A stretch of DNA of 63,945 nt, the filler included, from Sphacelaria rigidula (taxonomy: Eukaryota): the NCBI GenBank assembly GCA_964200075.2. It is 3 parts of 3 records of this genome, joined end to end, with 100 filler letters (N's around TTAATTAATTAA, not from the genome) between each part and the next. Parts side by side here need not be neighbours in the genome. Positions count along the whole stretch, not along the records: positions 1 to 21,259 come from CAXNAA020000445.1; 2 more parts are not named here. One strand, 5' to 3'. A model generated the notes under the pieces. The model had not been told where the DNA came from. It did not search any database and worked only from the letters and a program-made list of their open reading frames with translations. The number at the start of each line of letters is the position of its first letter. Positions within the stretch are counted from its first letter, which is position 1. The translations under genes were made by a program, and so were the position numbers. Of the stretch, positions 1,731 to 60,476 are shown piece by piece.

Positions 1731-1764
1731 TGCGTCCCACCGGACGGCGCATGCTTGCGCAACG

Positions 1765-4700
1765 TGTAGAGTATTCCATCTCCAGTACACGTACGTACAG
1801 GTTCATGATGATCTATACGTGGAACAATCTGCTGTAGGCGTTTTCTATTGGTTGACGGACTTGCGGGTCTGATCGGCAGACTATGTGGATTTGAACATCA
1901 CATGCTTCACGCATGTGGTTACTTCCGACAACGAAGGCTTTGTGTTTATGAATAACAAGTGTCTTGAAGTCTCCAGGCCCTAGTGAGGGAGGAAGCCCTT
2001 GGAGCAATCTTGTGACCTTGTTCTGAGTCCAGGAGGGCTCTATAATAAACGTTTATCAAGAGGAACCCGCTGGTTTCTGGAAGAGGTTTTCCAGCTGTGG
2101 GCAGCTGCGGAGAAATGATCTAAAACTTTGCACACAGGAGTGTGCACTTTGTGACGTGAGGGAGCTCACTGACAGCGGAGAGACGGCTAGGTTGGCTGGA
2201 ACTGTTGCGTGCAGCTATGGCAACGCGCAAGAAAGTGGGTGATGGCGATGCAGGTGAAGAGGTGAAGTTTAAGTTTACGGAGCTTATGCCTGCAGGATAG
2301 CTGAAAGCCCCAGAGTACTGACGGCATTTTAGCGAAAATGCGTCCCGACGTTTTTATCAGAAATACGTCGAGTATGAAGAGGCAGTCAAAATGAACAACA
2401 AAGGGCGTAGCATGCAGGCCGTCTTACTGACTGTTACTGAACCGGTGCCGAGGCACATCCGTGCGTGTTTGTCACGCGCGAGTTTTGACGGATCTGTGCT
2501 TGACAAAGATGCTCCCAAGGAGGCTCTAGGCCGACATGCGAAATGTTGGCGGGATGAAGAGATTGATCCTTCAGTTGCTGCTGCTGGTGTGCGGAAGCAT
2601 TGGCTGCCCGCAACGAGCAAACTGCAATGGGGTGCCCTGGAGGAATTCGTGAGCCTGTACGGAACAGAGCGAGCATTTTTAGGCGAGTGCTGCATGGTTG
2701 TCCGCCTGATCGCGTCGAGCCCTTGAAGGTGAAATTCAAACCTGCTGCTGTGGAGGCAAAGGCTCGGCCGAGGGCGTACTTTCCGGTCAGGATGGCGTGG
2801 TTGGCACGCTGCATCGCAACATTGGTGGCGCTCGGGCTCGTGTACTGCATTTTGCAGGTAGAGTGGGCGAGAGCGGCGATTGCAACGCCCGAGAAGTCCT
2901 GTTTTCGCTGGATGAGTGCATACAAGGCGGGGGAGAAAGTTTCCCATGACCACAAGGCGGTGGGTGGTACATGGTGCTCGCCCAGGGAAGGTTTTTCATT
3001 TCAATTTTCTTAGTGTTGGCGAGGGTGGCCCGCTGGGAGATAATGGCTTGGACAAAGGAGATCGGTTCAAGTACATATTTGTAAGGATGGATGACCCGGG
3101 CGACTTCGTGCGGTTGGAGCCCGCGGAGTCGTGTACAGCGGCAACGACGGTAAAGCATCTGTTGACATGGTGCAAAGCGCTGGGGCCGCAGGAGGGATGG
3201 GTCAGCGATACGGTATCGCAATATGAGAATCGTGTGGTGAGAGTGCTCAAGAAGGCGCTGATGGATCGCAGATTCGTAGTGGCCAATTCGCGGTTGTCAC
3301 ATCGTGAATGTAAGCGAATGGTGCGTGACAATGTTCGTACCTTGAAGGTCATAATGCAGAGAGGAAGACTCGATGCCAACACCTGGGTGGGTTCGGTACC
3401 TGCCGTGCAGTGGGCATTGCACACTGGTTCTCGGGACAGCTGTGAGAGCTGTAGCTGCATCGATGCGAGGAGCGACTGTTGAAGTGAAAATGCTACTCTA
3501 CGGTGTGGACGAAGTTGTAGCCGGAGAGCTGCTGTTTCTCAGGAGGAGCGCAGGAGAATTACATGGCGGGCATTGCCTGAGGTACTCAATGTTGCGGTGA
3601 GCGCCGGGTTGGGTGATGTTAAGGAGCAAGTACTAGTGGAAATACTTGTTGAGAATGAGGAAGCACATTGTGACTTGTATACCTGAATCGTTGATTGTAG
3701 GTGGTGGTGATGTCGTTCCTGGACTTGTCTGTTGTGTTGCGCTGGTTGGCACGCATGATACATGGTGCTTTCTGCAAAGAAGCTGCTGAGTAAAATATTA
3801 GCATGGATGTGTGACTGATGTGCATGGTGTCTGATGAAGAGTCAGAGTGAGGCAGTTTTCAATAAACTGCTGTGTGCTGAATGAAAAAAAGCTCGTATAT
3901 TTTTGTTCGTGCGTAAAGTGGAATCACCTTTGTGCGGTTTACAGAAACTGACTTTAGGAGATGGCGATTGCTGCTGCTGGCGTGAAAATGGGCGGAAACT
4001 ACGAAATGCGTAGGCTTTTATGTGAACAAGTATAACGTGAGTATTTCCAGAAGTTAACGATAAACGAAATCGTGCGCGAATTCAGTGATTTTTTACTGTG
4101 GTACATCTTTGATGGCTTGTCGTGTGTTTGGATAAGCGCATAGATGTTGTTTCGCCCTGAAAAACGGAGAATGTGGATGGTGTACCTATTTTTCTGGAAG
4201 GAGCACCGCGTATTTGTTCTGAGGTGCGTCAGTTGGAACTGAGTCAAAAGGTGTGTTCACGGTTGTAGGCAAAGTACGGTGTCAAGCTTTGAGTGCATGG
4301 TATGATCGAATGCTACGGTTTGAAATGGTATTATCCTTGACGCATTTGCTTTGTGTGAGCATGCCACGACTGGAAATTGCCGTTGAATGAATTATTGACT
4401 TAACTAAATTCGATTGAGACGCTGTGTTCAAGTGAAGTGTCGTTGTTCAGCGCTTTGCGAATGATCATTTTCTTTGTGAACATGACATAGCATGGTCATG
4501 TGTGACCAACAGGCGGACAAAGGTAGCATGAACGTGTTTGTCGGTGTCTAGTGTTTGTCAAACTCGCTTTCTACATCGAGTAGTGCGGAATTTTGGGGGT
4601 GCTGTAGAGTAGTCCCCCTCCAGTACACGTACGTGCAGGTTCATGATGATCTACATGTGGAACAATCTACTGTAGGCGTTTTCTATTGGTTGACGGACTT

Positions 4701-4882
4701 GCGGGTCTGATCGGCAGACTATGTGGATTTGAACATCACATGCTTCACGCATGTGGTTACTTCCGATAACAAAGGCTTTGTGTTTATGAATAACAACTGT
4801 CTAGAAGTCTCCAGGCCCTAGTGAGGGAGGAAGCCCTTGGTGCAATCTTGTGACCTTGTTCTGAGTCCAGGAGGGCTCTATT
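1765..4882 (+). mobile_element. Internally deleted Ty3/Gypsy-derived LTR element (LTR type C), both LTRs and TSD present
   Basis: 280-bp direct repeats at 1765-2044 and 4603-4882 (TGTAGAG...CTCTATA/CTCTATT). 4-bp TSD AACG at 1761-1764 and 4883-4886. PPT-like tgggggtgc directly before the 3' LTR. Internal relics of gag (~2230-2700), RT N-terminus (~2700-2940) and integrase core (2980-3430: FHFNFLSVG, WVSD, ECKRMVR, AVQWALHT). Confidence 0.9.
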
Positions 4883-5678
4883 AACGCGAAAAGTAACTGC
4901 TCGTCCTCAACATCATGATCATGTTTCAAGAACGTGTCACACAGGCATCTCGCAATATGTTTCGGCATGAGCTCAGAAACTGCTTCCACCTCAAAGAGTT
5001 TTGTCCACCGCGCGTTCACCTGATACACATCTCGCAAATATTGCTTGTATTTGCGTAAAAACTCGGCCGATTTCTCGCTCGAAAACTTGCGGCCTTAGTA
5101 CGGTTTTTCCAGTGCCAGTACAGGAACAACACGGCCATCGACGATGACATATTCCTGCACCTTATCCATTTCGGTCAGCAGTACAGCACTCCACACCGCC
5201 TTTTTGAAAAACGAAGTCGTCTCCCACTCACAGGAACAACAACTCTCTCCTTACACCGAGACGCGCTGTACCACCTTACAATGACAATGGCCACAGCGCG
5301 TCTTTCTCACGCAGGTCTAGCCACGTGTTTGAAGTCCTTATACTCCTCTTCCTAGCCGTACCTGGCCAAGCGTGGAACAAGCAACTCTCGCTGGCTCAAC
5401 CAGGCAGTAATCGTTCCGCTTTTTTGGAGCGCTCACGGACTCGCCAGCTGTCGATGAACGCCCCGCACCTCACGCACGAGCGATACCACAGCCCGCCCTA
5501 GCACTCACACTGCCTCAGAACCTCCTCGGCTCTACTTCTTCAACTCCTCACGACGTTAACACGCCTTGAGCTGGTCTTATTTGCTGCAAACTGATCAGGC
5601 CTGCAGCCTTCCCTATCTTGAACTTTCAGCTGCTTTTTGCGGACCTACCACTAGTCAGCGGACTAAATGAACGTTCAT

Positions 5679-5935
5679 TGTAGACTTCTGTCACTCAACA
5701 TCAGATTGCCATGTGGACTCCTCCCATCACGGGCACATCGACTTCAGCAGCTTTGGTTATTCATATATAAACCCTCAGCACAGTACAGGAGAACAGGACC
5801 ATAGCCTCTCTCCACGAGAGTAGCAAAACCGGGCCTACTCTTCATGGAGGTCACCATCACAAAGTCCGGCGATCAGACCCGCAACTCCACCTACAATCTC
5901 CCTGACCTTAGGTAACAATGGTGGCTGGGTCTACA
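5679..5935 (-). repeat. LTR type A (5' LTR of the element extending leftwards)
   Basis: 257 bp bounded by the inverted termini TGTAGAC...GTCTACA. Similar to 8765-9021, 9863-10119, 21214-21259 and 28125-28433. Confidence 0.9.
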
Positions 5936-7872: not shown

Positions 7873-8124
7873 TCACAGCTTGATACTATACTTGGCCTTC
7901 AGACGCTCCCGTATCTCCTTATTCAGTTTCAACGTCCGCAGTTCAGATCGTACAAACTGCGGCGCTCCTCTCAAAATGACATCCAACGGCTCCCATGAAC
8001 TTTCGTCCTCATCGAAACCTACCCATTCCACACGTACATTGTAGCCATCTCCTTCGTGTGTCTCAGATATCCCGGCGATGGCCTCCATCTCAAACTCTCC
8101 TTGAGCATATGCATGCTGGAACAC
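7873..8124 (-). pseudogene. Chromodomain at the C-terminus of a Gypsy integrase
   Basis: FEMEAIAGI...YNVRVEWVGFDEDESSWEPLDVI fits the chromodomain pattern (F/Y-E-V-E-x-I...Y-x-V-x-W-x-G-F/Y...S/T-W-E-P) and lies downstream of the integrase. Confidence 0.9.
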
Positions 8125-8764
8125 CTCCTTCGGATCCGCGGTGACCTCCAGTTCGTTTTCCGTTTAGTACCGAAGACGTGCGACATGCGCGTCCTTTACC
8201 TTGCCATTCACGATATTCTGAATCTCGTAGACATGTTTTTGCTTCGCTGTTACGATCCCCCAAGGCCCTGTCAACGTACTTACGAGTTTCGGCGTTGTTC
8301 GTGAGCGCCTAACCCGCGCAGCCAACACATGATCACGCGCCATGAATTTGGCAACTGCCCCTTACTAGCAACACGTCATTGCGGTTCACGAGTCTTCTCA
8401 ACACACTGCACCACTTCCTTGTGCAGCGCTTGCTGCGCCTCCACGACTGATGCCACCTTCTCCCGTAGCATGTGCTCATCCAGCACATCGAGTCGCCAGT
8501 CGCCGACGGTCGACGATGCCAGGGTCGAAAACCTTGTGCGCGGCGTCCGTCCTAACATCACATGGTATGGCGTACTTGCGTAGCGCTCGCGGAATGCCGT
8601 GTTCAATGCCCACTGTACGGCAGGCACCAGTCCCACCCAGTCACGAACGTCGCGCCTCTCTTCTTGCAGCATGACCTTCATAGTACGGACAACCTCTCGC
8701 ATCATCCTTTCACACGTACCATTTGACCACGGCGAGTTGGTGACCGCGAACGTCCTGTCCAGCT

Positions 8765-10119
8765 TATAGACTTCTGTCACTCAAGATCTCATCGTCATGT
8801 GGACTTCTCCCATTACGGGCACATGGACTTCAGCAGCTTTAGTTATTCATATATTAACCCTCAGCAGAGTACAGGAGAACAGCACCATAGCCTCTCCACC
8901 AGAGTAGCAAAACCGGCTCTACTCGTCATGGAGGTCACCATCACAGAGTCTGGCAATCAGACCCGCAACTCTACCTACACAATGTTCCTGACCTTAGGTA
9001 ACAATGGTTGCTAGGTCTACAGCACCCCCAAAGCTCTTTACTACCAACAAGTAGTTACATCAGAGCTTGACAAACTCAGACAAGATTGGTGCCTGATAGT
9101 ACCGTCGTTTTCCGCAAAGAATAGCACTCTCTTCCGCTGCTTTCGACAACAGCTCCATCCATACAAGCTTGCCCCACTTCCGAACAACTCGTGAGGGATC
9201 CCAAGAAAATATCGGCCACATGGACTTGAAATCACGCTACTTGCACCACTTCGAGTTACAAAGCGATAGCCATCGCCAAGTTCGCAAATCTTCGCCAAAA
9301 ACAAGTCTCTTGGCTCTTCATTGCCACTAAACCGCAAATGTCAGCGAACGTCAAATTCCAGAGCATTCGTGACTCATCGTCCCTTTCACCCGAGACGAGT
9401 TTCTTCTCGACATTTAAAATGCACTCTTGTACGTTCAACACCTGCGCGACGGAGTGCAACAGCCAAATGATATATCATCCTCACGCTAGAAGGAAATATG
9501 CACCCAACACGTCTAAAACGCACCTGGCCTTTTGCTCCTGCAACACCGTAAACAACGTATGCATCGCATGCCTCTGCGCCGTCAGAGCTTCAGTGCTTCA
9601 ACTTGCCATCATTTTCTGGAACGCTCTTGGGCTCGCCAGCTGTCGATGAACGCCCCGTACCTCACGCACGAGCGATACCACAACCCGCCCTAGCACTGCC
9701 TCAGAACCTCCTCGGCTCTACTTCTCCAACTCCTCGCGACGTTAACACGCCTTAAGCTAGTCTTGTTTGCTGCAAACTGATCAGGCCTGCAGATTTCCCT
9801 ATCTCAAAGTGTCAGCTGCTTTTTGCGGACCTACCGCCTTAGCGGACTTAATGAACGTTCATTATAGACTTCTGTCACTCAAGATCGGATCGCCATGTGG
9901 GCTCCTCCCATCACGGGCACATGAAGTACAGCAGCTTGAGATATTCATACATTGAACCTCAGTTTAGTACAGGAGGACAGGACCATAGCCTTTCTCAACC
10001 AGAGTCGCAAAACCGGCTCTACTCGTCATGGAGGTAGGTCACCATCACAGAGTCCGGCAATCAGACCCGCAACTCCACCCACAATGTCCCTTAGGTAACA
10101 ATGGTGGCTGGAGCCTACA
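8765..10119 (-). mobile_element. Complete non-coding TRIM-like LTR element (1355 bp, LTR type A) inserted into a Gypsy integrase
   Basis: LTRs at 8765-9021 and 9863-10119. 4-bp TSD AGCT at 8761-8764 and 10120-10123. Removing it restores the integrase peptide ALEKALKL-DRTFAV. PPT-like tttgggggtgc at 9022-9032 (- strand). No recognisable coding domain inside. Confidence 0.92.
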
Positions 10120-11334
10120 AGCTTCAGCGCCTTCTCCAGTGCTCGCATCATATGGTTCTTAAAATGTGACGCGGAGTCACTCACCCAGACCTCCGGCGGG
10201 CCCAACGCCTTGCACCACGCCAACAGATGCTGCACCGTCGCTGCAGCTGTACAAGAATCGGTGGGCTCCAACGATACGAAATTGCACAGATCATCCGTCA
10301 TTACAAATATATAGTTGTACCCGTCGCCTTCATCCAGGCTGCTTTCGCCCAGCGGACCACTTTCGCCAACGTACAGATAGTCAAAATGCATCACCTCGCC
10401 GTACCGTGTGTCATGCACTGTCTCCCCTAGTGGTCGCGGGACCGTTTCACCCGCTTTCGAGTCTACAACACAATGCGAGCATTTCCTCACAAAATCTGTC
10501 ACATGAGCTTCCATCCGAAACCAATAGCAACACTCTTGCAGCCGCTGCAGCGTCACCGCAATACCCCGATGGCCCGCCCCCTTCATGTGAGCACACACCA
10601 TCAAGCGTGTTTGCAGCTCTTTTGCTTGCGGCGGGATCCACAACACATTCCGCCCTGCTACATGCACGCGAAATAAACCCTCACCGTCTTTCGAAACTCG
10701 CCCAACAGCTGCTCCAAAGGTAGGGGCCCTAGCAATCATCACTCCGAACCCGGCAGCGTTTCATCAGGCTGACCGCTCGCGAACACGGCCGCAGCACGCA
10801 CACACTCCGCCGGAACGTCTACCCACCTTGACAATAAATCTCCCCAGCTGTTGCGTTCACCAGGAAATAATCGTACTGCCCAAGTACAGCCTTCCATTGC
10901 TCGAGCCTCTGGGCAGCAGTTTTACATACAGATGCCACGCACACCTCGGGGTTGAAAATGTATGCTAGATGAAGATGATCGGTGAATATATGTACCCCAC
11001 CCCATAGAAGATACTCCAACCTACGGAAAGTACTTACAATCGTATAGCCTTCCTTGTCCACCATAGCCCAACGAACCTGCGCTCACGAAAAGTTCTGCTA
11101 AGAAACCTCATCGGCTCATGGCTCATCTCTTCCACCGCCAATGTACCACCCAGCTCATCCTTCGGCACCTGCATAAAAACTTCCCCAGGGTAGATCCGAT
11201 GCATCTGGAAACATGAGCACCTCATACCCCTGCTTGGGATATGACAAAGCGACGGCGTGCGCCACCAAATCTTGCGCCTCGTGCCACGCCTGAGCACGCC
11301 TGGACGTCCATCCCAACTCCTCGATTGTCCGGTG

Positions 11335-12035
11335 TGACGACACTCGAGACCGTTTGCCCTGTTATTGCCGTTTTGGATTTGGGGGCTGGCGTCATTTTCA
11401 TGTCCGAAAAAGTGGCCGCCCAGTTGCAAGCAGTGTTCCCTGATGTGCCAGTTGTCACGAGTATGACTCGTGCACACCCCGTGAAACTAGCTGATGGTCA
11501 TGTACGGAGTATGCAGTCGAACACATGCCTAGTGCGCACCGCTCTGCACACCAGCTGGGGGCCGGTAGTGTTTGATCCGTGTCAGTATGCGGTTATGCTA
11601 GGTGCCGATGATGTGATGATCATCGGGAGCGGTACGCCGGATGCCATGGGCATTGACGTGTATAGTGGGCTGGACGCATGCGCACGCTCAAGACACGCGT
11701 TGGTGAGAGGTGTAGATACGCCTGAATTCCGAGAATATAGACGTGTGAGCATTGCGATTGAGGCGTTGCAAGATCCAGGCGGACAAGAGGAGCCTGTGGA
11801 TCCCTTCATCGAGCGATTGACGTCGCGTGGACTCGAGATGAACATGACTCCAAAGGAGGAGCTGGTTGAGCGTCGTCTTGCATAGGATCATACGGTACAG
11901 GTGGCTGCGGACAAGAGGATATCGGCGAGCGGCGTTGGTAAGCTTCGGGAAGTTGTTGGGCACCGTGTCAACGCTTTTCGGCGAGCACTGCGCGGTGATC
12001 CGCCTGCTCGTGTATAGCCATTGAAGGTGAGATTC
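11335..12035 (+). pseudogene. Gypsy aspartic protease and pre-RT relic
   Basis: ORF 11241..11885 contains AVLDLGAGVIFMSE (degenerate DSG motif), VKLADG and DVMIIGS. Homologous to the - strand copy at 16086-16580 (AVLDSGAG). Confidence 0.8.
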
Positions 12036-12093
12036 CATGTGCGGCTTCGAAAATTCAATCCAGAAACGACAAGTTTCCTGAATAAACATCTAC

Positions 12094-12359
12094 TGTAAAC
12101 CTGTGTGGAATCAGAACAAGGTCACAGTGCTGCTCCAGAGGCTCCTCCCTTTCATGGGCTCCACAGACTTCAAGACTCAAGCAGTTATACAAACAGCGGT
12201 CTTCGTTAAAACCAGAAGTGACCCTTCTTTTCTCCCCTCGCAAACACAATATGCTACGCATTTGATAATCATTCTCCAACCCATCGTCACATGATCCAAA
12301 CTGATACTCATATGTTACCGTACTCCTCATGCTAGAGGTGCTACTGTGCTTCTTTTACA
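12094..12359 (-). repeat. LTR type B
   Basis: Termini TGTAAA...TTTACA. Similar to 7431-7697 and 18211-18474. Adjacent leader (gaaacgacaag) matches the one beside the 18211 LTR. Confidence 0.88.
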
Positions 12360-14893: not shown

Positions 14894-15152
14894 TCTAGAC
14901 TCAGGGCAACATTGTTACCTTGACTCGGTACATGACTGCAGTCGACAAAATGCATAGCTGGCGTTTATAGGCTGGATGGCGGATAAAGGATCTGAGAGTA
15001 TGATCGTTGGACTCCGTGATGTATGATGTTTGCATACGAGGTGAGCCGATCAATTCAGGTTTCAACGAAGACTGTTGTTTGTGTAACTACTTGAGTCTAG
15101 AAGTCTCTGGAGCCCCTGACAGGGACGAAGCCTCTGGAACAGCACTGTGACC
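14894..15152 (+). repeat. Inverted, truncated copy of LTR type D (13781-14063)
   Basis: Reverse-complement matches, e.g. gactgcagtcgacaaaatgcatag vs ctatgcattttgtcgactgcagtg, and ggactccgtgatgtatgatg vs catcatacatcacggagtcc. Confidence 0.85.
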
Positions 15153-15157
15153 AAAAT

Positions 15158-16058
15158 CTCGTGTAGAGCCATTGAAGGTGAAATTCAAACCTTGAGCTAG
15201 AGCAGTCAAGGCGAGCCCGCGAGTGTATTCCCCTGTAAAGGCAACGTGGTTGGCAGGGTGTATGGTGACGCTGGTGGCGCTTGGGCTCATATTTAGCAGC
15301 GTAGAGGCAGCATGGGCGATTGCGGCCATGGCGACGCCGAAGAAGGACGGTTATCGACTGGTGAGTGATTATCGCGCGGTAAACAAGCAGATTGAGAAGG
15401 TTCCGAATGTCATGCCCGACCATGAGGCGGAGATGGTCGACCTGCTAGGCGCTGCGTGTTTTGGCAAGATTGATACGCTGTAGGGTTACTGGCAGATGCC
15501 GTTAGCGGCTGATGCACAAGAAATATTCACGATTGCGGCTCCCGAAGGTCTGTTTACCCCCACACGGGTGCCGTAAGGGGTGTTGAATGCGACGGGGTAT
15601 TTTCAGGGCATCATGACAGGATTATTGACCGGACTTCAGTGCAAAGTATGCGTGGATGATATCTTGTGGTGGGGTAAAGACGAGGATGATCTGTTGTGTA
15701 CACTGGACGAGGTTTTGGGCCGTTTGGAGAATGCTAGTCTTTTGGCGGCTGCGCACAAGTGCATGTTCTACGACACACAGATCATGTGGTGCGGAAAGGT
15801 ATTTTCAGGTGGTCAAGCGGCTCATGACCGCGAGAGACTATGAGCAGGCTGGCCAATCTTAGGCGCGTTCGCACAGCAGGCGACCTTATGCAGTTTCTGC
15901 AGGCGGTCAAGTGGCTGAGAACGTCCCCGCTGCGTTTGGCGGAGGTGGTGGAGCCGCTGCGGCGTGCTCAGGCGTGGCACGAGGCGCATGATTTGATGGC
16001 GCACGCCGTCGCTTTGTCATATCCCAAGCAGGGGTATGAGGTGCTCATGTTTCCAGCC
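15158..16058 (+). pseudogene. Gypsy reverse transcriptase relic with start of RNase H
   Basis: GYRLVSDYRAVNK, FGKIDTL*GYWQ, RVP*GVLNA, VCVDDILWW (YxDD position), LMQFLQAVKW. In-frame stops at 15481 (TAG) and ~15574 (TAA). Confidence 0.9.
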
Positions 16059-16061
16059 TAG

Positions 16062-18474
16062 TGGACACGTCAATGCCCACGGCCTCTAGCGTACCGCTCC
16101 CATTGGCACCTGGCATAACCACAGAATGACATTAACACCACCGGCCCCCAACGCGTGTATTGAGCGTGTGCATGCGTCCAGCCTACTGGACACGTCAATG
16201 CCCACGGCCCCCAGCGTACCGCTCCCATTGGCACCTGGCATAACCACAGAATGACACAGACTTAACACCACCGGCCCCCAGCTAGTGTGCAGAGCGGTGC
16301 GCACTAGGTACTTCTTCGACTGCATACTCCGTTCATCACCATCGGCTAGTTTCACGGGGTGTGCATGAGCCATGCTCGTTACAACTTGCACATCAGGGGA
16401 CACTGCTTGCATCTGGGCCGCCACTTTCTCAGATATGATAGTGATGCCAGCCCCCGAATCCAAAACGGCAGTAACAGGGCAAACGTTCTTGGCTGCGGAA
16501 CCAGGAACGGACACGTCTGCCCGGCAGCATCGCTGCTTGCGGTGACTGCTGCCGAGATAGCCCCCCCCCAAACCGGCCAAAAACGTGCACGAGGGCGATA
16601 CTCATAAATGCCGTTAGAGCTGGGTTCTTGCTGCCCGACGCAACTCATTTGGGCGTCATAGCTGATTTCGCACTCCTACACGCCTCTCATATGGGCGAAG
16701 TTGCTGTAAACAAGCCCAACAGTGGAATCGCAGCCGGTTTGCCAAACGGTCTTCGGTGCACTTTTTGTAGGGGGGCTATCTCGGCGTTAGTCCGGTCAGC
16801 TACCACACCCTCAGCCTGTAAACCTGCAACCTCAGCGGTGTGCAGACCCCGCCATACCGGCATTGTCTGAGACGTCCACTCCTGAGCTAGTCCTGCCGGC
16901 AGTGGGAGTTGACCTGCAGGAGCTGGAGCGGAAGGCTTGGGTGGCACCACGCTATCCGCACTACTAGCGCCCCCCTGCGTTCCATCCCCCGGGAAAACAG
17001 CCCCTGTGGGAGCAGGACTTTTACTGCCCCCCGCTGACCATGGACCTGTTGTTGTTGCTGCTGCTGCTGCGGCGGCGGCGGCGACGACGACTTTGCTTGC
17101 CCTCCTGACGCACTCACCGTGGCCGCAGGTGTGCTCTGTTTGTTACAACCCTTCCTGTCGTGACCCTTATGGCTACACTCGAAACAACCGGCATAGCTCG
17201 GACCAGGTTTGTGGGGCTTTTTTGAGCTCGAACCGTGACTACCCGCTGCGGCGGCCGCAGCCGCTGCGGCGGCATGCTATGTCAGTTTTTCGAGCCTTGG
17301 GAGCCACTTTTTTGCCTAAGTTGCAGTTGCTGGGGGTGACGTTTGTCAACTTCTTCAACAATCTTTCATTTTTCCGCTAAGTCATGAGCTACCTCATAAA
17401 CCACTCTTGGGCTCCCTTTGCAGTCACTTTTATATAGAGTATATTTTGAACTTTTATTCTTGAACTCAGATGGGGTCAGGCCGGTGACCATAGCTCTGGT
17501 AATCACATGTGCTGGACCAGCCTTGAACGTACGGTCAGATTCGAGGAAAACGCACTCCACACCCGCACTTTCCGCAAAGTACTCCTGCAATAAACTTCAT
17601 TGCCCTCCTACTCGACCCATTGCAATTGGTTCAGAGCGGGCGGCAAGGGCCTTTTTCACGCCGACTGCAGCTTCGGAAGGATCAATTTTCATATCGCTCC
17701 AGCATTTTTGTGTGGCGTGCAATCCATTGCTGAAATTCATCTTCGTCGGGTGGCAGCCCGTCAAAGATGGTGTCAGACACGCAGTTCTGGATGTGCTTTG
17801 GCACCAACTCTTGCGTGGTCAACAGTGCGCACTTAACCGACCGGCCTTTGTTACTTTTTCCCACTGCCTCCTCGTAATCTCGATACTTTTGGCAAAAGCG
17901 TCTGGAGGCTTGTTCACTGAATACTCGTCCATAAGTGGGCACTTTCAACGATCCACCCAGTGTCAACTCGGTTACTGTAAACTTCACCTTATCAACCGTC
18001 TCGCTGGCACCACCTCCTCTGCGCGCTGCCATCCTTCCAACGCCCTCCTGTCACCGCAGTCGCGTTGGATTTGTGTGGCCTGCACCTCTCTCTCCGCCGC
18101 TTCCCCCCCTCCCTGTTATTAAAAATGAGCGTCCTCAGGTTCTACAAACGGTTGGGTGCGACGTCAAAAGCCCAACCCGGAAACGACAAGTGTCATACAC
18201 AAAGGTTCATTGTAGGCTTGTCTAGAATCAGAACAAGGTCACAGTGCTGCTCCAGAGGCTTCCTCCCTGTCACGGGCGCCAAAGACTTCAACACTCCAGC
18301 AGTTATACGAACAGCATGTCTTCGTTACCTAGAAGTGATCCTTGTTTGCTCCCCTCGCAAACACAGTATGCTACGCATTTCATAATCACCTTCAACACGC
18401 ATCACAATATCCAAATTGATATCCATATGCTACGGTACTCCTCATGCTACAAGTGCTACTGTATTTTCTTTAGA
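16062..18474 (-). mobile_element. 5' half of a Gypsy element: LTR type B (18211-18474), gag relic and protease
   Basis: Gag relics at 17682-18032 and 17366-17590. Zinc knuckle CFECSHKGHDRKGC (CX2CX4HX4C) at ~17141-17187. Protease AVLDSGAG in 16086-16580. ~70-bp local duplication at 16061-16130 / 16188-16257. Confidence 0.85.
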
Positions 18475-18479
18475 CGCCG

Positions 18480-21259
18480 AATCACTGGAGCAGATCGACT
18501 CGCCCTGAGCATCGCAAGCCCAAAGCTTGCTCTGCTCGCTCTCATCACAAAGATAAAACCCCCCTGCAGCGGTGAGCATGCAAGGTGTGTCCCCAATTAC
18601 GCGCTGGTCCGGCGGCCACAAGCAACCGGGTCCTCTGCCTCTCAGCGCTAGCTCATCGGAGCAAGTCGGCTTCGCCCTTTCATCAGCAGCGGCAGCAGCG
18701 GCTGAATCAAATATACCCGCTTCAGCCACCATCTCCTGCCCACTCCTGAACGGCAACAGCGGCAGCTGAGCTGCCTGCAGTCCGCTTAAGCTGCGGCAAT
18801 ACCAGCAACATCCAAACCAGTCGGCGGGTGCGCTCTCATGCCTACCCGCTTGGACAGGCATGTGCTGTGTCTCCTTCCCGCTCTGCAGAGTGTAAACAAC
18901 TGCCCCGTATCGTTGCTGGAGTGCCCTGTATTGTTGTTTCAGATGCGCCACTTACTGCACGTTCGGCAAGCGCACGGTCGTGCCTGTTCCCTCTGACAGA
19001 CATGTGCTTTTTCACCGTTCACAGCGCATGCGAGAGTGCTCTCATGCCTGTTTCCTCTGACAGACACGTGTTTTGTGACCAGTGCGCGCTTCACAGTACC
19101 GTGAACCCCACGCGACGACGCATGCTTGCGCAACACTAAAAGCAACTGCTCGTGCCCAACATCATGAGCATGCTTCAAGAACATGCCACATAGTGCTGGA
19201 GGTGCCGTCCTACGGCCGCAGTCCTTCGAGCGAGAAATCAGTCGAGTTTTGAAGGAAATAGGAGAAGAATATGCGAGATGTATATCAGGGGAACGCGCGG
19301 TGGCCAAACCTCTTCAAGGTGACAGCAGTTTCTGACCTCATGCTGAAACATATTGCGATATGTCTGTGTGACACGTTCTTGGAGTATGTATGCTTATGAT
19401 GTTGAGAACCAGCAGTTGCTTTCCGCGTTGCGCAAGCATGCGTCGTCGCGTGGGGTGCATAGTACTATCAAGTGCGCACTGGTCATACAGCACGTGTCTG
19501 TCAGAGGGTACAAGCATGAAACCTCTCTCGCATGCGCTGTAGAGAGTGAGAAGCATGCGTCTGTCAGAGGGAACAGGCTCGACCGTGCGCTTGCCGAACG
19601 TGCAGTAGGTGGTGCGCGTCTGAAACAACGATACGGGGCAGCTGCTTGCGCTGTGAAGGGTGAAAAGAATGTGTCTCTTAGAGGGAGCAGGCACGACCTT
19701 GCGCTTGCCGAACGTGCAGTAGGTGCAGCACGTCTGAAACAACGATACGGAGCAGCTGCTTGCACTGTCAACGGTGAAAAAGAATGTGTCTGTCAGAGGG
19801 AACGGGCACGACCGTGCGCTTGCCGAACGTCCAGTAGGTTGTGCGCATCTGAAACAACAATACAGGGCAGCTGCGTGCACTGTAGAAGCCGAGAAGTATG
19901 TGTCTGCCCGAGAGAACAAGCACGACAGTGCACCCGCCGAACGTGCAGTCCGTAGTGCGCGTCTCCAGCAACGATACGGGGCAGCTATTTACACTTTGCA
20001 AAGCGGGAAGGGGACACAGCACATGTCTGTCCAAGCGGGGAGGCATGAGAGCGCACGCCGACTTGCTCCGATGAGCTAGTCCCAGCTGCTTGTGGCCCCC
20101 GGACCAGCGCGTAATCGGAGACACACGACACACTTCCTTTCATGAAGCAATACTCCTAGGGTCCTCCCTCGGGTGTTCAAGAATCCACCTTCGTTCGTGT
20201 CGTATATTCATGTCCTGTCCCCCCCGCCGAGAACACCTACTACCTACCCAGTTCTCTCTTGACCGCGGGTCTGAGGGCTTCTTGGACTATCGTGCTCACG
20301 TGGAAACATGGACTCAATACCACCATGGTTGCACAAGACACACCTTGCACGCTCACCGCTGCAAGGGGGTGTCATCTTTGTGATGAGAGCGAGCAGAGCA
20401 AGCTTGGGGCTTGCGATGCTCAGGGTGAGTCTATCTGCTCCCGTGATTCGGCGAGAGATTATCCAGATGGTTTACACGGGCATCTGCTTGCAGGAAGAGT
20501 GGATGCCGGGCTGACGGATGTCGATTCGCTGGATTACGTGGTGTTGCGGTGGTCGTACGCCATTGCTGTTCACATGGACAGCTTTGGTGTGTTTGGCGGC
20601 GATGGCGAAGGGTTCTCCACTGTTGCGCCGCGGGGTGTTCGAGGAGTATAGTGTACTGTCATCAGGAGGCGAGTGATGCTACGGTAGGGTTGCACTTTTT
20701 GAACGAAAATGTTGCTCGGGGTGTTGCAAGCATCATTTTGAGAATCGGTATCATTTTCACTTGAAAAAGACTGAAAATTATGCCGATTCACGAAAAGGCC
20801 CCTGTGTGCATCTCCATGTCCTGTCCCCGGAGATTTGGGTTGCACCGTGAGCCCCATATATTTGCGCTCCTACAAAAGCGAGTGCAAGAAACAAAAAGTG
20901 CTACCCTTATCGTAGAATTGGTTAGACATTGCTTTTCGGGACTGTGCAGCTGTCCCCGTTTCGCCTCTCGTTTCCTCTGTAGAACTAACTGAAGCGCAGG
21001 TGTTCAGTACTGCCCAAGTATCTGTGGAGGCATACGGCTTGTCGCATTGGTTTGGCGGTGCGGATATACCGTTTGGTGGCGAGGTGAGCGGCTCCATGAG
21101 GGTGCGAGCTGTAGCTGGACTCATGGCGCGAGGAGCGAGTGTTCGAGCGGAAACGCTGCTGTATGGTGCGCACGGGGTCGTGGTTCGAGTGCTGCTGTTT
21201 CTCAGGAGCGGGCTGTAGACTTCTGTCACTCAAGATCAGATAGCCATGTGGACTCCTCC
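18480..21259. mobile_element. Rearranged fragments of the non-autonomous element seen at 1-5935, in both orientations, ending in the start of a type-A LTR (21214-21259)
   Basis: 18480-19180 resembles 900-1764 plus 4887-4930. 19390-20130 and 20335-20520 are inverted copies. 20930-21213 is an inverted copy of ~90-370. TGTAGACttctgtcactcaagatc at 21214 runs into the gap. Confidence 0.75.
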
Positions 21260-36894: not shown

Positions 36895-39800
36895 GTAATC
36901 TAAGTCGATCAGGTTCACGGATGTGAACACGGCTTCCCAGTTTCGGTCGCAGGAGAACTTGATAGCTCAGGCAGCAATCGAGCGTGTCACCATGATCGAG
37001 ATATTTGAAAAACGTCCTATTATTATCGCGGTCCCCAGTTACTCTCGGTCCCTAATTTACGCAAGGAGATATGCTCGGCGTTTTAAGCTCTACCGAGGAA
37101 TAAAGGTGGACAACAGTAAGTCAGTAAGTCAGTTTTCAGAAAGAAATCGGAGGGAAACGAGCAAAAAGAGGGGCTGGTTTGACTGCGTTATAGATTTCCG
37201 GTCGCTCGACGTCTAAAAAATCGCTAGGGAAATCACCCGTGCTAATCACCCGCTCGGTAGGGGAATCACCCGTGCTAATCGGCAGCTCGCTATGAAAATC
37301 CGTGGGAAATCACCCGCTATTCTCGGAGTCTTTTTTTCTCGAGTAACTCTTATTCCTGGAACGTACTTCACAAATCGTGCCTACCGGCGAATCTACCTAC
37401 TTGGCAGACTACAGGGTATACTACACGTATTCGTCATCACCCCCGCCAGCTCAACAATTCGGACACGCTACAGTACATGTCTCTGGGTTTTCGGAATCCT
37501 AAGAACCGTTCATCAGAAAACGAGTATGCCCCTCAAAGGTCGTCGAGTCCGATGCTTTGGTGAGGATGTCCGCGTGTTGCTCTCCTGAGTTCACGTGTTC
37601 CACACGGATGATGCCGCTGTCGACGGCATCCCTAACGGCGTGATGTTTAACGTCGATGTGCCTTGACCGTCGGCTGTTGAACCGGTTGTTTGCCATTCCA
37701 ATAGCGCCCTGACTATCCTCATGAAAAGGGATCCCGGTGTCAGCGGGCGGCGCCCTGAAGGATAGTACCTGTCCGAAGAAGCGCAGCTCGTTGGTTGCTT
37801 CTGCGAGCGCCGTGTACTCCGACTCTGATTAAGCCGAAGCGGTGAGCTTCTGTGCCCGGGAGAACCAGCTGATGGCGCCTCCGGCCAGCATGAACGCCAC
37901 TCCTGACACCGAACGCCGGGTATCCGGGCACGTGGCGTGGTCCGCGTCGACCCACGCGGAAACTTGGTGTCGTTTCTGGACGTTTCACCGTTCACGATCA
38001 CGCCGTCTGTGGTGCGCTTCAGGTATTGCATGATCTTCATGACTACTTTCCAGTGTGCCGGTCCCGGGTTGTCGCTGAACTTGGCGACGTTGTGTGCTGC
38101 AAAAGATAGATCGGGCCTTGTCAAGGTGGCAATGCACATCAGTGCTGCTACCGCCTCTCGGTAGGGGGTACTCCGCCTCTCGTTCACTTCGTCTTTGTTT
38201 CCTGGTCCGTCTGTCTTTGAGAGCGCATCTGTTCCAGTAGCGACCGGAATCTTGACCGTTTTGACGATTTTGAAGCGCTCGGTCACTTTCTTTGCGTACT
38301 GACGTTGATCAAGAGTCACCGTTCTAACCTTGCGGTCCCGGATGACGTGGCACCCGAGGTAGTATGAGATTTTCCCTAGATCTTTGATGGTGAAACTCGA
38401 TTGTAGATCTGCGAGGGCCCTTTCTTCGTTCTTTTACGTGGTGCTGATCAGGAGAAGGTCGTTCACGTAGACGACTATGATGACTGCCACGCGGCGTTCT
38501 CGCCTCTTGTGTTAGACGCAGGTTTCGGCTTGCGATCTCTCAAAACCCTTGCGGAGAATTTCTTGGCCAAACGTTTTCGCCCACAGTCGTTCTGCGTGCA
38601 CCAGGCCGTACATGGTTTTGTTGAGTCTTCCCACTTGGCTCATAGACGGACGGTATTCATCGAGTAGTTCAATATTGGTGTCTTCCTCGACGTCCGTCTC
38701 GAGGTAGTGCATCTCTACATCTAGTTGGTGCTCTTCCCAGTTCTGCGTCGCTATGAGCGCAAGTGCCATCCGGATGCTGGACTGCGCCGGTGTGGGAGAA
38801 GAGGATTCGTGGTAGTGAATACCGGGTATCTGGCGAAAACCTTGGGCGACAAATCGGCACTTGTACTTCTCGATCTGACCGTCCTTGTCGATCTTCCTCG
38901 TGAAGACGAGTCTAGTGCCAAGAGCCGTTGTGCCTTTGGGACGGTCTACTGTTTCCCAAACCCTGCAAGAGAGTTGTCCCTTCGCCTCGCCTTGAAGGCT
39001 CCTCGCCACTAAGTCCATTGTGAGGATGATTGTGCCTGTCCCAGTGTTGTTGGTTCCTGCGGTAGCTCGCTTGATAGTGTGACGATAGCTGCTGCTTCCT
39101 CGGCCGTAGCATCCTCCACCTTCCTGGTCTCCATGTCCGCGATCTGAGCTTTCATCATGGAACTGAGCAACGCGGTTAGTCCTCCTCCACGAGTACGTCG
39201 CGGTAGGATGGCTGGAGTTTCTCCCATGTGGTAGCTTGCCAGTTTGCGTACAGCTGCGGTCGTGGGTGTGAGGGTCGTTGAGTTGGGTCTTCTTTCATCT
39301 TCCTGCTCGAATATATCCAGCTCGAGCTCTGACTTTTCGTAGGGGTATTCGGCAATGGTCTCCAAGGTTGTTGAAGTGAACGACCGGCATGAAGGTGCGT
39401 GCTTGTACCCCCCTCCATGGCCTCGTGGCGGTCGGCCCGTCGTGTGCAGGTGGCTTCGAGGGGTGCCAGACAACAGATTTGCGCAGAAGTACCGATCCGG
39501 TGGTGAGATCTCGCACCCGATATGTCAGCCATGGGCAATCCATCGCAGTGCCCAGTAGGATGCACTTGTTTCCGCGCAGGGGTAGCTTGTATGGCGGATT
39601 GTGCCCGCGGAAGTAGCCGACGATGCTGAACGGAAAAATCCTGGCGAGGGAAGGTTTCTGGCTATACCAGAGCTCGTAGGGCATTAGTTCACGACCCAGT
39701 GACAATGTGACGCTCTTGTTGGTCATGTCGCAGGCGTATTGCATACCTTCGGCCCAGAGGCGATCGGATTTCCCTTCCTTGAGGCTGCAAAGCAGGGCGA

Positions 39801-42461
39801 CAGTTTTTCGCGCAGTAGTCCGAGAGCTCTCTCGGCGACCCCGTTGTACTGAGGAGTGTGAGGTGGCGTACGCTCGCGCTTGGTGCCCGGCTTGTTGAGG
39901 AGACCTTGAAACTTCCCCTCGAATTCACCTCCACCGTCAGTACGGATCATGCTGGTCTTGATGCCAGCAGGGGTGATATGCGTGGCGAGGATGTCTTCAA
40001 GTACCGCAGTGGTGTCGTCCTTCTTCCTCAGAAACCGTATGATCTTGAACGGCTGTAGTCGTCGACACACAGCATTGTGTAGTAGCGACTACCGAAAAAC
40101 GATGTCTCCGCGAAGGGTCCGACGAGATCGATGAAGAATCGCCCAGCACGCGTATCAGCGCGCATGTCTGTGGTCTTCGGCACAGCAAAGCGTCGAACTC
40201 GTCATTCGGAGCGCGGGCGCACATGGTCGCCACTCGCCTGTCAGCTGTATGCCGGCCATCTGGATAGTCTCGCGCGTGATCTCCTCGCTGGGGTGTCCGA
40301 GTATTTCGTGGAAAGCCATGATGTCTTGGGCGTCGGGCTTCGAACCAGGCTTCTTGCCAAGCATCGCTTGGTCGTGGCGGTGATGTGTTGGTGGGCTCCG
40401 GCGTGGCAGGGCGGCGTCGAACCTTGATCTCGTGAAGGTCGCTCTCGAAATGGAGCCTTTGAAACGCGAGTGACCTTGGTCCCTGCGGTGGTTTGATGGT
40501 GCTGGCTGCAGGGCACATTTGGAGGGGCGCGTGGAGTGATGTGGATAGTTTTGTCACCGAATGGAGGTTGTGGTTTCTCAGTTGGGGCACATGCGCCACG
40601 CGCTGTAGCTCGAGGCCCTCCGTGGTTTCAGTGAAATCGCCGGTGTCTTGGTCAGCTTCGAGATGTAGCCGACCATATCCGGTGATGGGGGGGAATTTTC
40701 CGTCGGCTGTCTCCACGCGGTCGTTCGTTGCAGTCGTGTGGTAGTCGCGTAGACTAGCGGCTTGACGTCATGTCCTCCGATGCTCTGCTGTCGGCTACCC
40801 AGAATTCGTCGTCTCGATTCTTTTTGGCGATGAGTCCGCCAGTGGTGGAAGTCTTCGCCAGCACTCTGTCGCCAAGGGCGCCTGTCGAGTCCGTAGTCGC
40901 CATCATGCTTTGCTGAAGGCCTTTCGCGCCTGCCTTCTTGGGGCGATTCGGTCACTCGAAAGTCTTGTGTGGTCCTTCGCAATAGAAACATCCCAAGTTG
41001 GGTGTCTTGCGGTCTCCAGCGTTGTTGCATATTGTGGTATTGCCCTTCCGGCGGTTGGCGCTTCGTCCTCGGCGTCAGGTGCGGACGACCGCTTGAAGTT
41101 TGCGACAAGATGTTGCGTCATGCCCGGGCTTAGAGTAGAGAACGCATAAGGAAGCAGGTCTCTCGCTACCCGAGTTCGCAGTTATGAGTGCGTGTGAGCC
41201 TGCAGGAGTCTTTTCCCCCTCGAGACGCTCGAACTGGTTGAGGATCGTGCATTCGATTTCATCTCGATCGGGCCAGTTGGCTGAAGTTTCGAGCATTTGA
41301 GCCTCCGCGTCGTACTGGCTCGTCAGCCCCGATATGATTGCAACGTCGATATCTTTTTCGTCGACGGGCCTTCCGACGCGCTTAAGTTCTCAAACGAGGC
41401 GATCGACTCTAAGTAGGTACTTCCGAGGGTGCTCTCCGAGTTTCATCTTCAAACCGTAAAATTTCATGATGAGCTCTTTACGTTCTTTATACCCACTTGC
41501 GTGGTAGTGTTCCATCAGTCGTCGCCAGGCTTGGCTGGGAGAAACAGAGGACTGTACAGTCTCAAGGGCGATTCCCTTACAATTAGTGATCAGGAAAACC
41601 CACACCTGATTTGTCTTCCTTAGGGAGTCTGGGTTGATGCCGTTGCTGTCAAACTCCTCCTGTCCCACTTTCACTTCTTTTTTCACCGGTGATACTCAGC
41701 ACATCGATGCATCCCAGCGCCGTCAACTGGGCCCGGTGTGCTTGGGACCAGTCGTTCCAGTCTGCAGGTTTCCCGCGGAATTTCCGGAAGTCGATCTTTG
41801 CCTTTGCCTGTCATGGATCCGCTGGTGCGGATCCAGGCATTGGGAGCTGCTGCTGCTGCTGAATTCTGTCAATCAGCACTAGTTGCTGCTGTTCCCCCTG
41901 AGCCTGGACTTGCTGCAGCACTTGTTGTTAAGCCTGCTGTTACTGTTGCATCATCGCTTGTATACCAGTCATGACGTTTGATAGGTTGCCTTCTCCCGAT
42001 TGCGCAACGCTTGACGAACGCGCCTTCATCTCTCTCGATTTCCGTAAAACCCCCAAAAGCTAGTGACTACCTCCATCGGTTGTAAACGATATAACGTGTT
42101 AAAGTATTCTAACTCGATGAGGTTCACGGATGTGAACACGGCTTCCTACTTTCGGACGCTCGAGAATTTGAGAGCTCAGGCAGCAGTCGAGCGCGTCCCG
42201 ATGATCCAGATATTTGAAGAAGGTCTTATTGATAATCAAGATATTTCAAAAACGACCTATTGTTATCGAAGACTGCCTCAAAGATTTCCTATCGCTCGAC
42301 GTCAAGAATATCACTGAGGAAATCACCCGTGCTGATCACCCGCTTGCTAGGAAAATCTGTGGTAATTCGCTCGCTATTCTCGGATTTTTTTTCTCGGATA
42401 ACTCTTATTCCTGGAAGGTACGTCACAAATCGTGCCTACCGGTTAATCTACCTACGTGGCA
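36895..42461 (-). mobile_element. Decayed Ty1/Copia LTR retrotransposon
   Basis: Order gag-PR-IN-RT-RNase H on -. Gag SPSQAWRRLMEHY (41390-41686). Knuckle relic LCVLYSKPGHDATSC. Protease WVADS (~40790). FHEILGHPS (~40300). Integrase IRTDGGGEF...TPQYNGVAER (39723-40070). RT YKCRFVAQGFRQ, QLDV, MYGL, VYVND (38450-39018). RNase H region PYREAV..TRPDLSFA, HIDVKHH, QHADILTK (37499-38319). Diverged direct repeats at ~36895-37406 and ~42105-42461 are the probable LTRs. Many frameshifts. Confidence 0.93.
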
Positions 42462-42508
42462 GCCCTTTGACCGCCAGGCGGGGTGCGTTATCTGTTGAAT
42501 CAGCATCC

Positions 42509-45422: not shown

Positions 45423-46199
45423 ACCTTCATCCGTAGTAAAAGGGTGCCTTTACGCACAAGCTCGTATACGTCAGAAATAACTGGTGGTCCAGAAGTGTGG
45501 ATGGAAAAGGGACTGGACAGTCAAGTTGTAAGTACCGGATGGCTGCGCGACATAGCGGTTCTGCGTGTTGTTCGCGAGCCCAATCGCGGTGGGAGTAGCT
45601 GGCGAGAAACTCGCGGAGTTGACCTTCCGCTGGCGAGCCGACCAAACATGGTAGGGCAGGCGGCGGGGGAATAGGCGACGGGGCAGAAATGCCGACGTCA
45701 ATATCTGTCCCGGGAGCTGGAGACGAGTCGTCAGTTCCGTGCTCGGGGGCAGGAGATGTTTGCGGCACCGTTATAGGCGGCGGGGTTGTATCAGTGCGCG
45801 GCGAAGATTGCCCACGGCTCGTGGCGCACGGTGCAGAAGGTTTTGCGGAGCTTGCGTATTGGTCCGTGGAACTTGTGCTGGGTGGCTCATAGAGGTTGCA
45901 GGTGTTGTTGGTGGCGGCGGGGCACTCGGTGTGGTGCGGGCGGCAGACCGGGAGCGCGTGTTGTCGGAGATAAGGTGCGTGACTGGAGGTGTCTCCCCGA
46001 AGAGTTTCGCGCGAGTACCGAAAGTGCGGAAATCGACCAAATCGGAGGGAGTGGGCTTCAACCCACCCAAGACGGCGTCATATGGTAGAGGGCAAGGCCC
46101 TCCCAGATGCATACCGGTTTCCGGGCACTGGAGGTCGAGGGCGTAAACGGGCGTTGAAAAACGTCTAATCGCGTGAATTTCAGGTTCATCAGGTTCCGT

Positions 46200-47705: not shown

Positions 47706-47935
47706 GAAACTATTCCGAGAATCTGGTGATTAGCATTGAAGAACTTCAGCAGGAGGATCGGAATTTGACTGGGCATTTTCCACGGTGTGGACCTGGGGTG
47801 GAGTTGCAGAGGCGAGGTCGAAATAGGGTTCATCGGCGCAATGGACTATCTCCGCCGGAGATGTGACGTTTGGCGCGGCAGGCTCTGTGACGCACGTCTC
47901 GAATGGGATGTGCATCAGGCGAGCAGCGGCGAATC

Positions 47936-49348: not shown

Positions 49349-49749
49349 ATCAGCAACACTTCGGTCAGCTGTAAAATACTTACTGCTACCTGTGCGTGCG
49401 GTCTTTGAGGGAAGCCTTTGCCTCAGGTACTGGCGGTTGGTCTTCCCACACCTCAGAATTATACTCGGTTCTGAAGGACCAAGTTCAATGCCGGGTGTAG
49501 GTCTGAGTCGCGGGGTGATACAACTGTTACGCGGTGTGTGGAGGGATGAGGACGAGGGTCGATATGAACGACCGTCAGTTGCACTCCTGCATAGTGCCGG
49601 GAGAGCCGGGTGGACAATCTTAGTCGCGGGCTCTGCGGGCAGTGTTGAAAATTGTGTGGAGGGTGGAGATGAAGGTCGATATATGAACGGCCGTCAGTTA
49701 CCCTCCTGGGTAGTGCCGGGGGAGTCGAGTGAGCAATTTTAGACACGGA

Positions 49750-60283: not shown

Positions 60284-60476
60284 AACATGATGTCCCGACA
60301 AGCAGACGGAAACCGCGCTGAACAAAAAGGGAGGCCCCGCCAGAGATGAGAAGGGCGTTGCAAAGCTAGTAGAACGACTAGCCCACGCGTCAATTAACAC
60401 CAGCACAAGAAACGGGTACGAGAAAAACTTCGAAAAGTGGTCGAAGTGGAGGGACCGCCGAGAAAAGCCCGTATAT

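Follow-up and report, generated by a model that had tools for sequence, protein, structure and literature searches.

In a 63,945-nucleotide stretch of the Sphacelaria rigidula genome (GenBank assembly GCA_964200075.2; three parts joined end to end, hereafter the window), retroelements of the Ty3/Gypsy chromovirus type carry a short palindrome directly after the 5' long terminal repeat (LTR), in the position of a primer-binding site. In distant relatives from metagenomes, the same junction bears perfect palindromes of many other sequences. We propose, with a confidence that falls just short of even, that the palindrome is a self-complementary primer-binding site that would pair two element RNAs, one of which would be cut to give the primer.

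The window is a transposon-rich eukaryotic stretch. Self-comparison and a reading of the element ends show that each of the five 5' LTRs of the group is directly followed by a palindromic 12-mer or its relic (Table 1). The pattern ATRAACGTTYAT has three exact matches in the window (2045-2056 on the plus strand, 5667-5678 and 9851-9862) versus 0.00 expected from 100 shuffles. When the LTR end is added and up to three mismatches are allowed, there are four matches versus 0.23 expected, the fourth being the decayed copy at 18199-18216. The LTR ends were fixed independently by target-site duplications and by an empty-site joint of the type C insertion, at which contigs from public runs pass from position 1760 to 4883 with 4 letters shared (6 contigs in X1, 5 in X4, 3 in X6 and 2 in X7; four runs from three studies). 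Other LTR copies of the group, with or without a polypurine tract before them, run into unrelated sequence; the copies preceded by the tract (C3, A3 and B1) are 3' LTRs, and the remainder may be 3' or solo copies. Among the variant rows listed for the public runs, none falls inside 2045-2056 or 5667-5678, which proves nothing.

An earlier reading of the window, made from the sequence alone (the sequence-only reading), had placed a palindrome or relic at these five sites, right after each intact 5' LTR of a Gypsy-derived group. Exact-match searches, mismatch searches and direct reading together confirm all five, and Pfam domains and polyprotein matches identify the group as chromovirus. Its claim of a paired, symmetry-keeping change between types A and C also stands, the difference being confined to positions 3 and 10. 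Three details are amended. The palindrome was said to start exactly at the edge of the unique 5' region (U5), which is the case in type C, whereas the type A palindrome spans 14 nucleotides (nt) and includes the terminal A of the LTR, so that AATGAACGTTCATT is palindromic when that A is counted, as in the GalEa elements discussed below. The minus strand is correct for type B, and type A lies on it as well. Finally, all three perfect palindromes are exact, but A1 and A2 are related copies, leaving two independent ones.

The site-bearing elements are assigned, on sequence grounds, to a Ty3/Gypsy chromovirus family and its non-autonomous (deleted or miniature) derivatives, with TG...CA LTRs, a target-site duplication, a polypurine tract before the 3' LTR and the pol order reverse transcriptase-RNase H-integrase with a C-terminal chromodomain. 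In particular, type C and A2 share the polypurine tract TTTGGGGGTGC and the termini TGTAG...TCTAYA, with duplications of 4 bp. On the minus strand at 7876-11082, Pfam detects RNase H, Integrase_H2C2, rve and Chromo, and the type B integrase fragment matches full-length polyproteins of 1640-1670 residues at 60-81% identity. One of these relatives, P0003, is a polyprotein of 1672 amino acids (aa) with RVT_1, RNase H and rve, while its relative P0002 also has Chromo. When P0003 was mapped onto the window, type A1 was seen to retain a trace of gag, and type C to be an internally deleted derivative. The closest named proteins of the chromovirus are from two brown algae, and an Atlas search gave broad placement only, among oomycete and basidiomycete retroelement clusters. 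These families are very abundant in public runs, with thousands of matching contigs.

Table 1. Elements of the chromovirus group in the window and their junction sites (RT, reverse transcriptase)
Feature	Position	Strand	Remarks
Type C element, ~3.1 kb		+	LTR pair, polypurine tract, duplication AACG
Type C target-site duplication AACG	1761-1764 and 4883-4886
Type C 5' LTR (TGTAGAG...CTCTATA)	1765-2044	+
Type C palindrome ATAAACGTTTAT	2045-2056	+	begins at base after 5' LTR, primer-binding position
Type C internal region	2310-3437	+	remnants of gag (P0003 residues 23-118), RT (645-739), integrase (1264-1435)
Type C polypurine tract TTTTGGGGGTGC	4591-4602	+	adjoins 3' LTR
Type C 3' LTR	4603-4882	+	96% identity with 5' LTR
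Type A1 palindrome AATGAACGTTCATT	5666-5679	-	12-nt core ATGAACGTTCAT at 5667-5678; first A is last LTR base
Type A1 5' LTR (TGTAGACC...GTCTACA)	5679-5935	-
Type B pol remnants	7876-11361	-	RNase H, integrase (split by A2), chromodomain; 45-70% identical to P0003
A2, complete 1355-bp miniature LTR element	8765-10119	-	sits in integrase gene of type B element
A2 duplication AGCT	10120-10123 and 8761-8764
A2 LTRs	5' 9863-10119, 3' 8765-9021	-	84% identical to each other
A2 polypurine tract CTTTGGGGGTGC	ends at 9022	-	same tract as in type C
Type A2 palindrome AATGAACGTTCATT	9850-9863	-	12-nt core ATGAACGTTCAT at 9851-9862
Decayed 12-mer GTAGATGTTTAT	12082-12093	-	after type B2 5' LTR; read directly
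Type B2 5' LTR	12094-12359	-
Decayed 12-mer ATGAACCTTTGT	18199-18210	-	after type B3 5' LTR
Type B3 5' LTR	18211 to about 18474	-

To place these junctions among relatives, we set up a survey of 79 metagenome loci, chosen solely by two RNase H peptide patterns from the polyprotein alignment and showing 24-35% pol identity. Junctions were picked by hand, according to context, from all perfect palindromes of at least 10 nt. Junction palindromes are present in at least 28 of the 79 loci, and together with the window there are 29 non-redundant junctions with 19 distinct palindromes, of 10 nt (7 junctions), 12 nt (17) and 14 nt (5). All 29 start with A, the preceding base is C in 24, and the base at -2 is A in 26, giving the recurrent context ...(C/T)AC followed by the palindrome. 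True LTR pairs occur in two loci, L029 and L050, and both show the junction palindrome: the LTR end ...CTAC is followed by AAAGAATTCTTT in L029, and ...ATCA by AAAGTAATTACTTT in L050. Contigs that span pol, LTR and gag present a polypurine tract, TGT..., the LTR, ...CTAC, the palindrome and the gag ATG in that order. At a distance of 130-800 nt upstream, the junction loci have a polypurine tract followed by TGT (24 loci listed, with coding-sequence matches included), and in 24 of 27 loci a long open reading frame (ORF), gag, begins 4-134 nt beyond the palindrome.

Tests of palindrome context and density are independent of the hand choice of junctions. For palindromes that start with A directly after AC, 31 of 368 palindromes of at least 10 nt have this context versus 5.3 expected (shuffle maximum 8), as do 19 of 143 palindromes of at least 12 nt versus 1.25 expected (shuffle maximum 4). 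Additionally, palindromes of at least 12 nt reach 1.16 per kb in the 100-1000 nt after the pol end versus 0.33 per kb elsewhere, a 3.5-fold difference over 29 loci. Strict detection of a polypurine tract with a terminal inverted repeat yielded 6 clean cases among 106 candidates, a low number because the 5-nt termini are often imperfect. Searching the metagenomes for the type A junction, with any sequence allowed at the 12-mer, gave no match.

Several individual loci deserve mention. At L016:3629-3638, the junction palindrome CTACCGGTAG uses the LTR's own CTAC end as one arm and is in another register than the A...T type; it is not among the 29. L037:2588-2597 carries ATAAGCTTAT followed by CAAGAAG, 680 nt past the pol end, similar to the type C site with its flank (ATAAACGTTTAT CAAGAGG); it is preceded by AAA, not AC, and is likewise outside the 29. 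In the LTR of L029 (560-620), AATAAA lies within a 7-bp inverted repeat, ATAAACG...CGTTTAT, which is probably a poly(A) hairpin and whose arms resemble the halves of the type C palindrome. A 24-nt palindrome, TCTATAATGAACGTTCATTATAGA, in a giant-virus metagenome contig (L007:601-624) has no other likeness to an LTR and was taken as chance, as were the 8 matches of a DNA pattern scan of viral contigs, none of which shows LTR similarity.

An RT-to-integrase tree was built with FastTree from a query-anchored alignment of 69 rows, after 24 of 93 rows with fewer than 450 filled columns had been dropped. Palindrome-bearing elements lie on both sides of the deepest split, and the 10 rows of the brown-algal group form a nested cluster next to L015, L035 and L017. 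Sister elements carry different perfect palindromes in three pairs (L019/L038, L031/L024 and L021/L047). The central AATT is exchanged for TTAA in two separate places, L019 versus L038 and L031 versus L024, and three mirrored pairs differ between L021 and L047. Since the 19 palindromes occur on both sides of the pol tree, the symmetry has survived many paired changes. The covariation put forward in the sequence-only reading is thus borne out by 19 palindromes that share this junction in relatives with pol identity as low as 24%. Symmetry, rather than sequence, is conserved through many paired changes across a deep clade, and the feature is real, widespread and under clear constraint.

We then consider which molecule could pair with the site. 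No TGG-type tRNA primer site follows the window LTRs, where ATRAACGTTYAT stands instead, and no convincing one was detected in the 79 loci, where each of the 10 candidates is 195-970 nt away from a chance TGT and most are coding; the earlier statement that such a site is missing is upheld for window and relatives alike. The window contains no tRNA gene and no Rfam match. The best ungapped match of the site to the five window LTRs comprises 7-8 Watson-Crick pairs of 12. Across 19 elements, contiguous complementarity to the LTR extends over 4-7 nt at most and in no element exceeds that of shuffled LTRs, and an LTR complement above chance was found in none of 16 related loci, 8 of them with the LTR partly covered; the complementarity to about 9-11 bases at the transcript 5' end that defines Tf1/sushi-type sites was thus not found in these elements. 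A downstream complement within 110 nt, as in GalEa, reached p<=0.05 at 1 of 29 junctions. No other near copy of the site, for example near the 3' end, was found in the 19 elements except contig-end duplicates and one match with 2 mismatches. What is observed, then, is a palindrome of fixed position and conserved symmetry in elements that lack both a TGG site and another complement.

Structure predictions add the following. In 13 of 19 elements, the palindrome is the link in the predicted homodimer of U5, site and leader, which is expected of a palindrome and gives weak support, and the energies of the site duplexes range from -4.4 to -19.3 kcal/mol. In the minimum-energy folds of the five window leaders, the palindrome lies in differing contexts, and single folds show the LTR block TGAAGTC paired with the leader in a long-range stem. 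Two other readings were rejected. An alternative type A site, TGGTAGGTCCGC, is located 30 nt downstream of the LTR, at too great a distance from U5, and reads CGG in A2, probably ancestrally. A reading of GAACGTTC as a heat-shock element or other protein site fails because neither type C nor the relatives conserve it.

The minus-strand primer of an LTR element anneals directly 3' of U5 and thereby sets the LTR edge. The self-complementarity of the site, with no partner elsewhere in the element, points to the same site on a second RNA copy as the partner, and RNAs of LTR elements are packaged as dimers. In the proposed mechanism, two genomic RNAs would pair via the palindrome, and the RT/RNase H of the element itself would cleave one strand, either in the middle of the duplex or at its 3' edge. 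The same is said of Tf1, whose RNase H, according to work reportedly by Levin in 1996, cuts an RNA duplex to make the primer 3'-OH. The new 3'-OH would stand opposite the A of the LTR's terminal CA, which would fit the fixed register of the palindrome, and the primer would be extended to copy U5 and the repeat region (R). Either position of the cut is compatible with the anatomy. The non-autonomous copies (types C, A1 and A2) would keep the site because it is needed for their copying by the proteins of an autonomous partner. Such priming would amount to a trans variant of the Tf1 mode in a tRNA-independent chromovirus lineage, with the trans pairing, the cut, the enzyme and the later strand transfers all deduced from the anatomy and from established knowledge. 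The sequence-only reading had offered either a hairpin or an RNA-RNA dimer. The hairpin fails, because in a spacer-free perfect palindrome the central bases would have to pair and the site cannot fold on itself. The dimer provides the best fit, no other part of the element pairing with the site, while its priming steps are conjectural.

Several observations weigh against self-complementary priming. The junction list sought perfect palindromes only, so imperfect sites are under-counted. A junction-type palindrome follows pol in 16 of the 29 loci with post-pol sequence and is missing in the other 13. In these 13, the LTR may be a 3' copy that adjoins host DNA, which is the situation in L029, L050 and L051; in L029 and L050 the post-pol LTR is the 3' copy and the palindrome is present at the 5' junction. 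The register of type C is shifted by one base from that of the relatives, and the A..C at its outer edge is non-complementary. Moreover, the LTR start is approximate in 8 of the 16 loci searched for an LTR complement, and the LTR was only partly covered there. The palindrome is not the link in 6 of the 19 predicted dimers, and some duplexes are predicted to be weak, such as that of AATAATTATT (-4.4 kcal/mol). Finally, the presence of R-U5 on the 5' side of the primer would complicate plus-strand transfer.

A more specific version of the mechanism, which we consider unlikely, would have the two genomic RNAs prime each other after a centre cut, each copy rebuilding the second half of the palindrome from the first half of its partner. 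If so, a single mutation would be symmetrised in the next cycle, with no second mutation needed. This would explain sites that are perfect yet fast-changing, including the AATT to TTAA swaps without a wobble intermediate, seen twice on the tree. Furthermore, with mutual priming the palindrome would be a family-specific match code against cross-priming, type A and type C sites mispairing at two places, and the GalEa site of Copia elements may work on the same basis.

The main rival to self-complementary priming is that the palindrome serves dimerisation or another step. It might be selected for dimerisation and packaging, for the second strand transfer or as the DNA site of a dimeric protein, with another molecule priming at or across it; we regard this as doubtful, yet as the most serious of the alternatives. 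Perfect symmetry is a requirement of dimer linkage, dimerisation in retroviruses and Ty1 has been linked to palindromes within or close to the primer site, and the predicted homodimers use the site in the 13 of 19 elements given above. However, a primer must anneal next to U5, and the 4-134 nt before the gag ATG in 24 of 27 relatives leave it little room; no other conserved block adjoins the LTR. A sequence-specific protein is unlikely to recognise 19 different sequences.

Two further explanations are both very improbable, to the same degree. The first invokes a host RNA as the primer, namely a tRNA half, an internal fragment or a small RNA whose 3' end matches the 12-mer, and half-tRNA primers are indeed known in Copia lineages (PMC6317226, accessible part). 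The lack of TGG speaks against such an RNA, as does the lack of an Rfam match in the window. Moreover, the site varies in sequence by lineage and is always symmetric, whereas a conserved RNA predicts a few fixed sequences that tolerate asymmetry, and the mirrored pair of changes between types A and C is inexplicable by one tRNA. The second follows Tf1 and sushi in cis: a transcript 5' end at GTTYRT, some 100 nt short of the LTR end (type C, 1944-1949), would fold onto the first half of the site and be cut. The motif stands at the homologous place in all five window LTRs, in elements that are chromoviruses like Tf1, and could base-pair with ATRAAC, through T-A in C and B2, T.G in A1 and C-G in both B3 and A2, the last with a bulge. 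However, the match spans 6 contiguous bases (8 with G.U), a length attained by 34% of shuffled LTRs, and the pattern of C/T versus G/A has a chance probability of 0.3. The motif also overlaps a TATA-like/AATAA-like block common to all three types, which we take as promoter and poly(A) signals, and it thus probably precedes the transcript start. Nor would this pairing account for the conserved second half of the palindrome. With 0 of 16 relatives showing an above-chance LTR complement, the pairing with GTTTAT that the sequence-only reading had held as an alternative is dropped. Fortuitous symmetry of AT-rich sequence next to the LTR has a negligible probability and is refuted: although 10-nt palindromes are common (368 in 305 kb versus about 300 expected), a given 12-mer is perfectly palindromic in 1 of 4096 cases, while 29 non-redundant elements share the symmetry at one defined place, an enrichment of 3.5- to 15-fold.

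Among known systems, a close precedent is the fungal GalEa group of Copia elements, in which, according to the accessible text (2017, PMC5445492), a 9-mer is palindromic together with the final LTR A (10 nt) and a second 9-mer lies downstream. Similar to the window elements, GalEa is described there as having no tRNA-type site, no LTR self-primer and a short palindromic site right after the 5' LTR, with variants that arise by mirrored substitutions, and its authors propose a replacement of the primer-binding site. In contrast, GalEa belongs to the Copia superfamily and the window elements are chromoviruses. Its second conserved 9-mer, 12-41 bp downstream, completes a Conserved Hairpin Site, a hairpin with an A/A mismatch (PMC5445492, same text), a partner that has a counterpart at 1 of 29 chromovirus junctions. 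The chromovirus palindromes are 10-14 nt long and far more varied (19 sequences).

HIV-2 (human immunodeficiency virus 2) and MMTV (mouse mammary tumour virus) still prime on tRNA, and the classical retroviral dimerisation initiation site lies in a hairpin loop downstream of the primer-binding site. Such a short 5'-leader palindrome links two genomic RNAs and in some viruses, including these two, is described as lying within the tRNA primer-binding site (PMC5874298 and PMC8096270, accessible parts). In the chromoviruses studied here, by contrast, the palindrome is the whole primer site and occupies the primer-binding position itself.

In the Tf1/sushi group (S. pombe Tf1, Tj1 and sushi-ichi), the RNA of the element itself supplies the primer, as the accessible parts of PMC4600332, PMC10085805 and PMC6317226 report. 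The window elements resemble this group as chromoviruses whose LTR ends in CA and is directly followed by a non-tRNA site. In Tf1, the site pairs with the very first bases of its own transcript, which lie inside the 5' LTR, as part of a three-duplex 'pretzel' (same sources). In the window elements, which have no LTR complement and a self-complementary site, the pairing would instead be in trans. In plants, the survey by Neumann et al., in its accessible part, predicts self-priming for 12% of elements and lists 6% without a site. We found no description of a palindromic primer-binding site in chromoviruses in the literature, though the supplementary site tables of PMC5445492 and PMC6317226 may list such sites as 'self' or 'none'. 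The sequence-only reading, which had left prior description undecided, thus concerned a feature that appears new for chromoviruses and has a very similar palindrome in print for GalEa (PMC5445492, accessible part).

To our knowledge, the start of DNA synthesis in LTR retroelements without a tRNA site has been solved only for Tf1. Dictyostelium Skipper (PMC5006619) and Selaginella SM-Tcn1 (PMC2864245) are chromoviruses with a polypyrimidine-tract site and a T-rich site, respectively, without TGG or LTR complement, and in the accessible text of these papers the authors call for a new kind of priming; for both, as for GalEa (PMC5445492), it is stated there that no model fits. These pyrimidine tracts are non-palindromic, unlike the sites studied here. 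The present data add a large, deep chromovirus clade, including very abundant families of a brown-algal genome, with a directly testable rule, namely that a perfect palindrome begins at the A of the CA that ends the LTR. Annotation tools that demand a tRNA match would miss or down-rank such LTR elements. A self-complementary site would also evade host defences directed at tRNA primer sites.

The remaining observations concern the surroundings of the elements. Plus-strand pieces of the same chromovirus family, encoding protease-RT (11364-12080) and RT-RNase H (15151-16055), are inverted relative to the adjoining minus-strand LTRs B2 and B3, so the type B copies are rearranged, beyond mere decay. 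The type C element is inserted within a family of tandem repeats of about 114 nt, which flank it at 1313-1730 and recur inverted at 19530-20062. On the minus strand at 44280-54175, a second Gypsy-type pol (RT, RNase H and integrase), 21-23% identical to P0003, is preceded by about 6 kb of long ORFs without a Pfam match; no LTR pair for it was found in the window. Four consecutive long ORFs (328, 403, 504 and 369 aa), likewise without a Pfam match, lie on the plus strand at 56200-61400. Finally, a Ty1/Copia element with RVT_2 and copia-type gag matches occupies the minus strand at 36895-42462, with LTR pieces at 36895-37407 and 42104-42462, and its 5' LTR (...TTTAACA) is followed by CGTTATATCGTTTAC, which lacks TGG and is non-palindromic.

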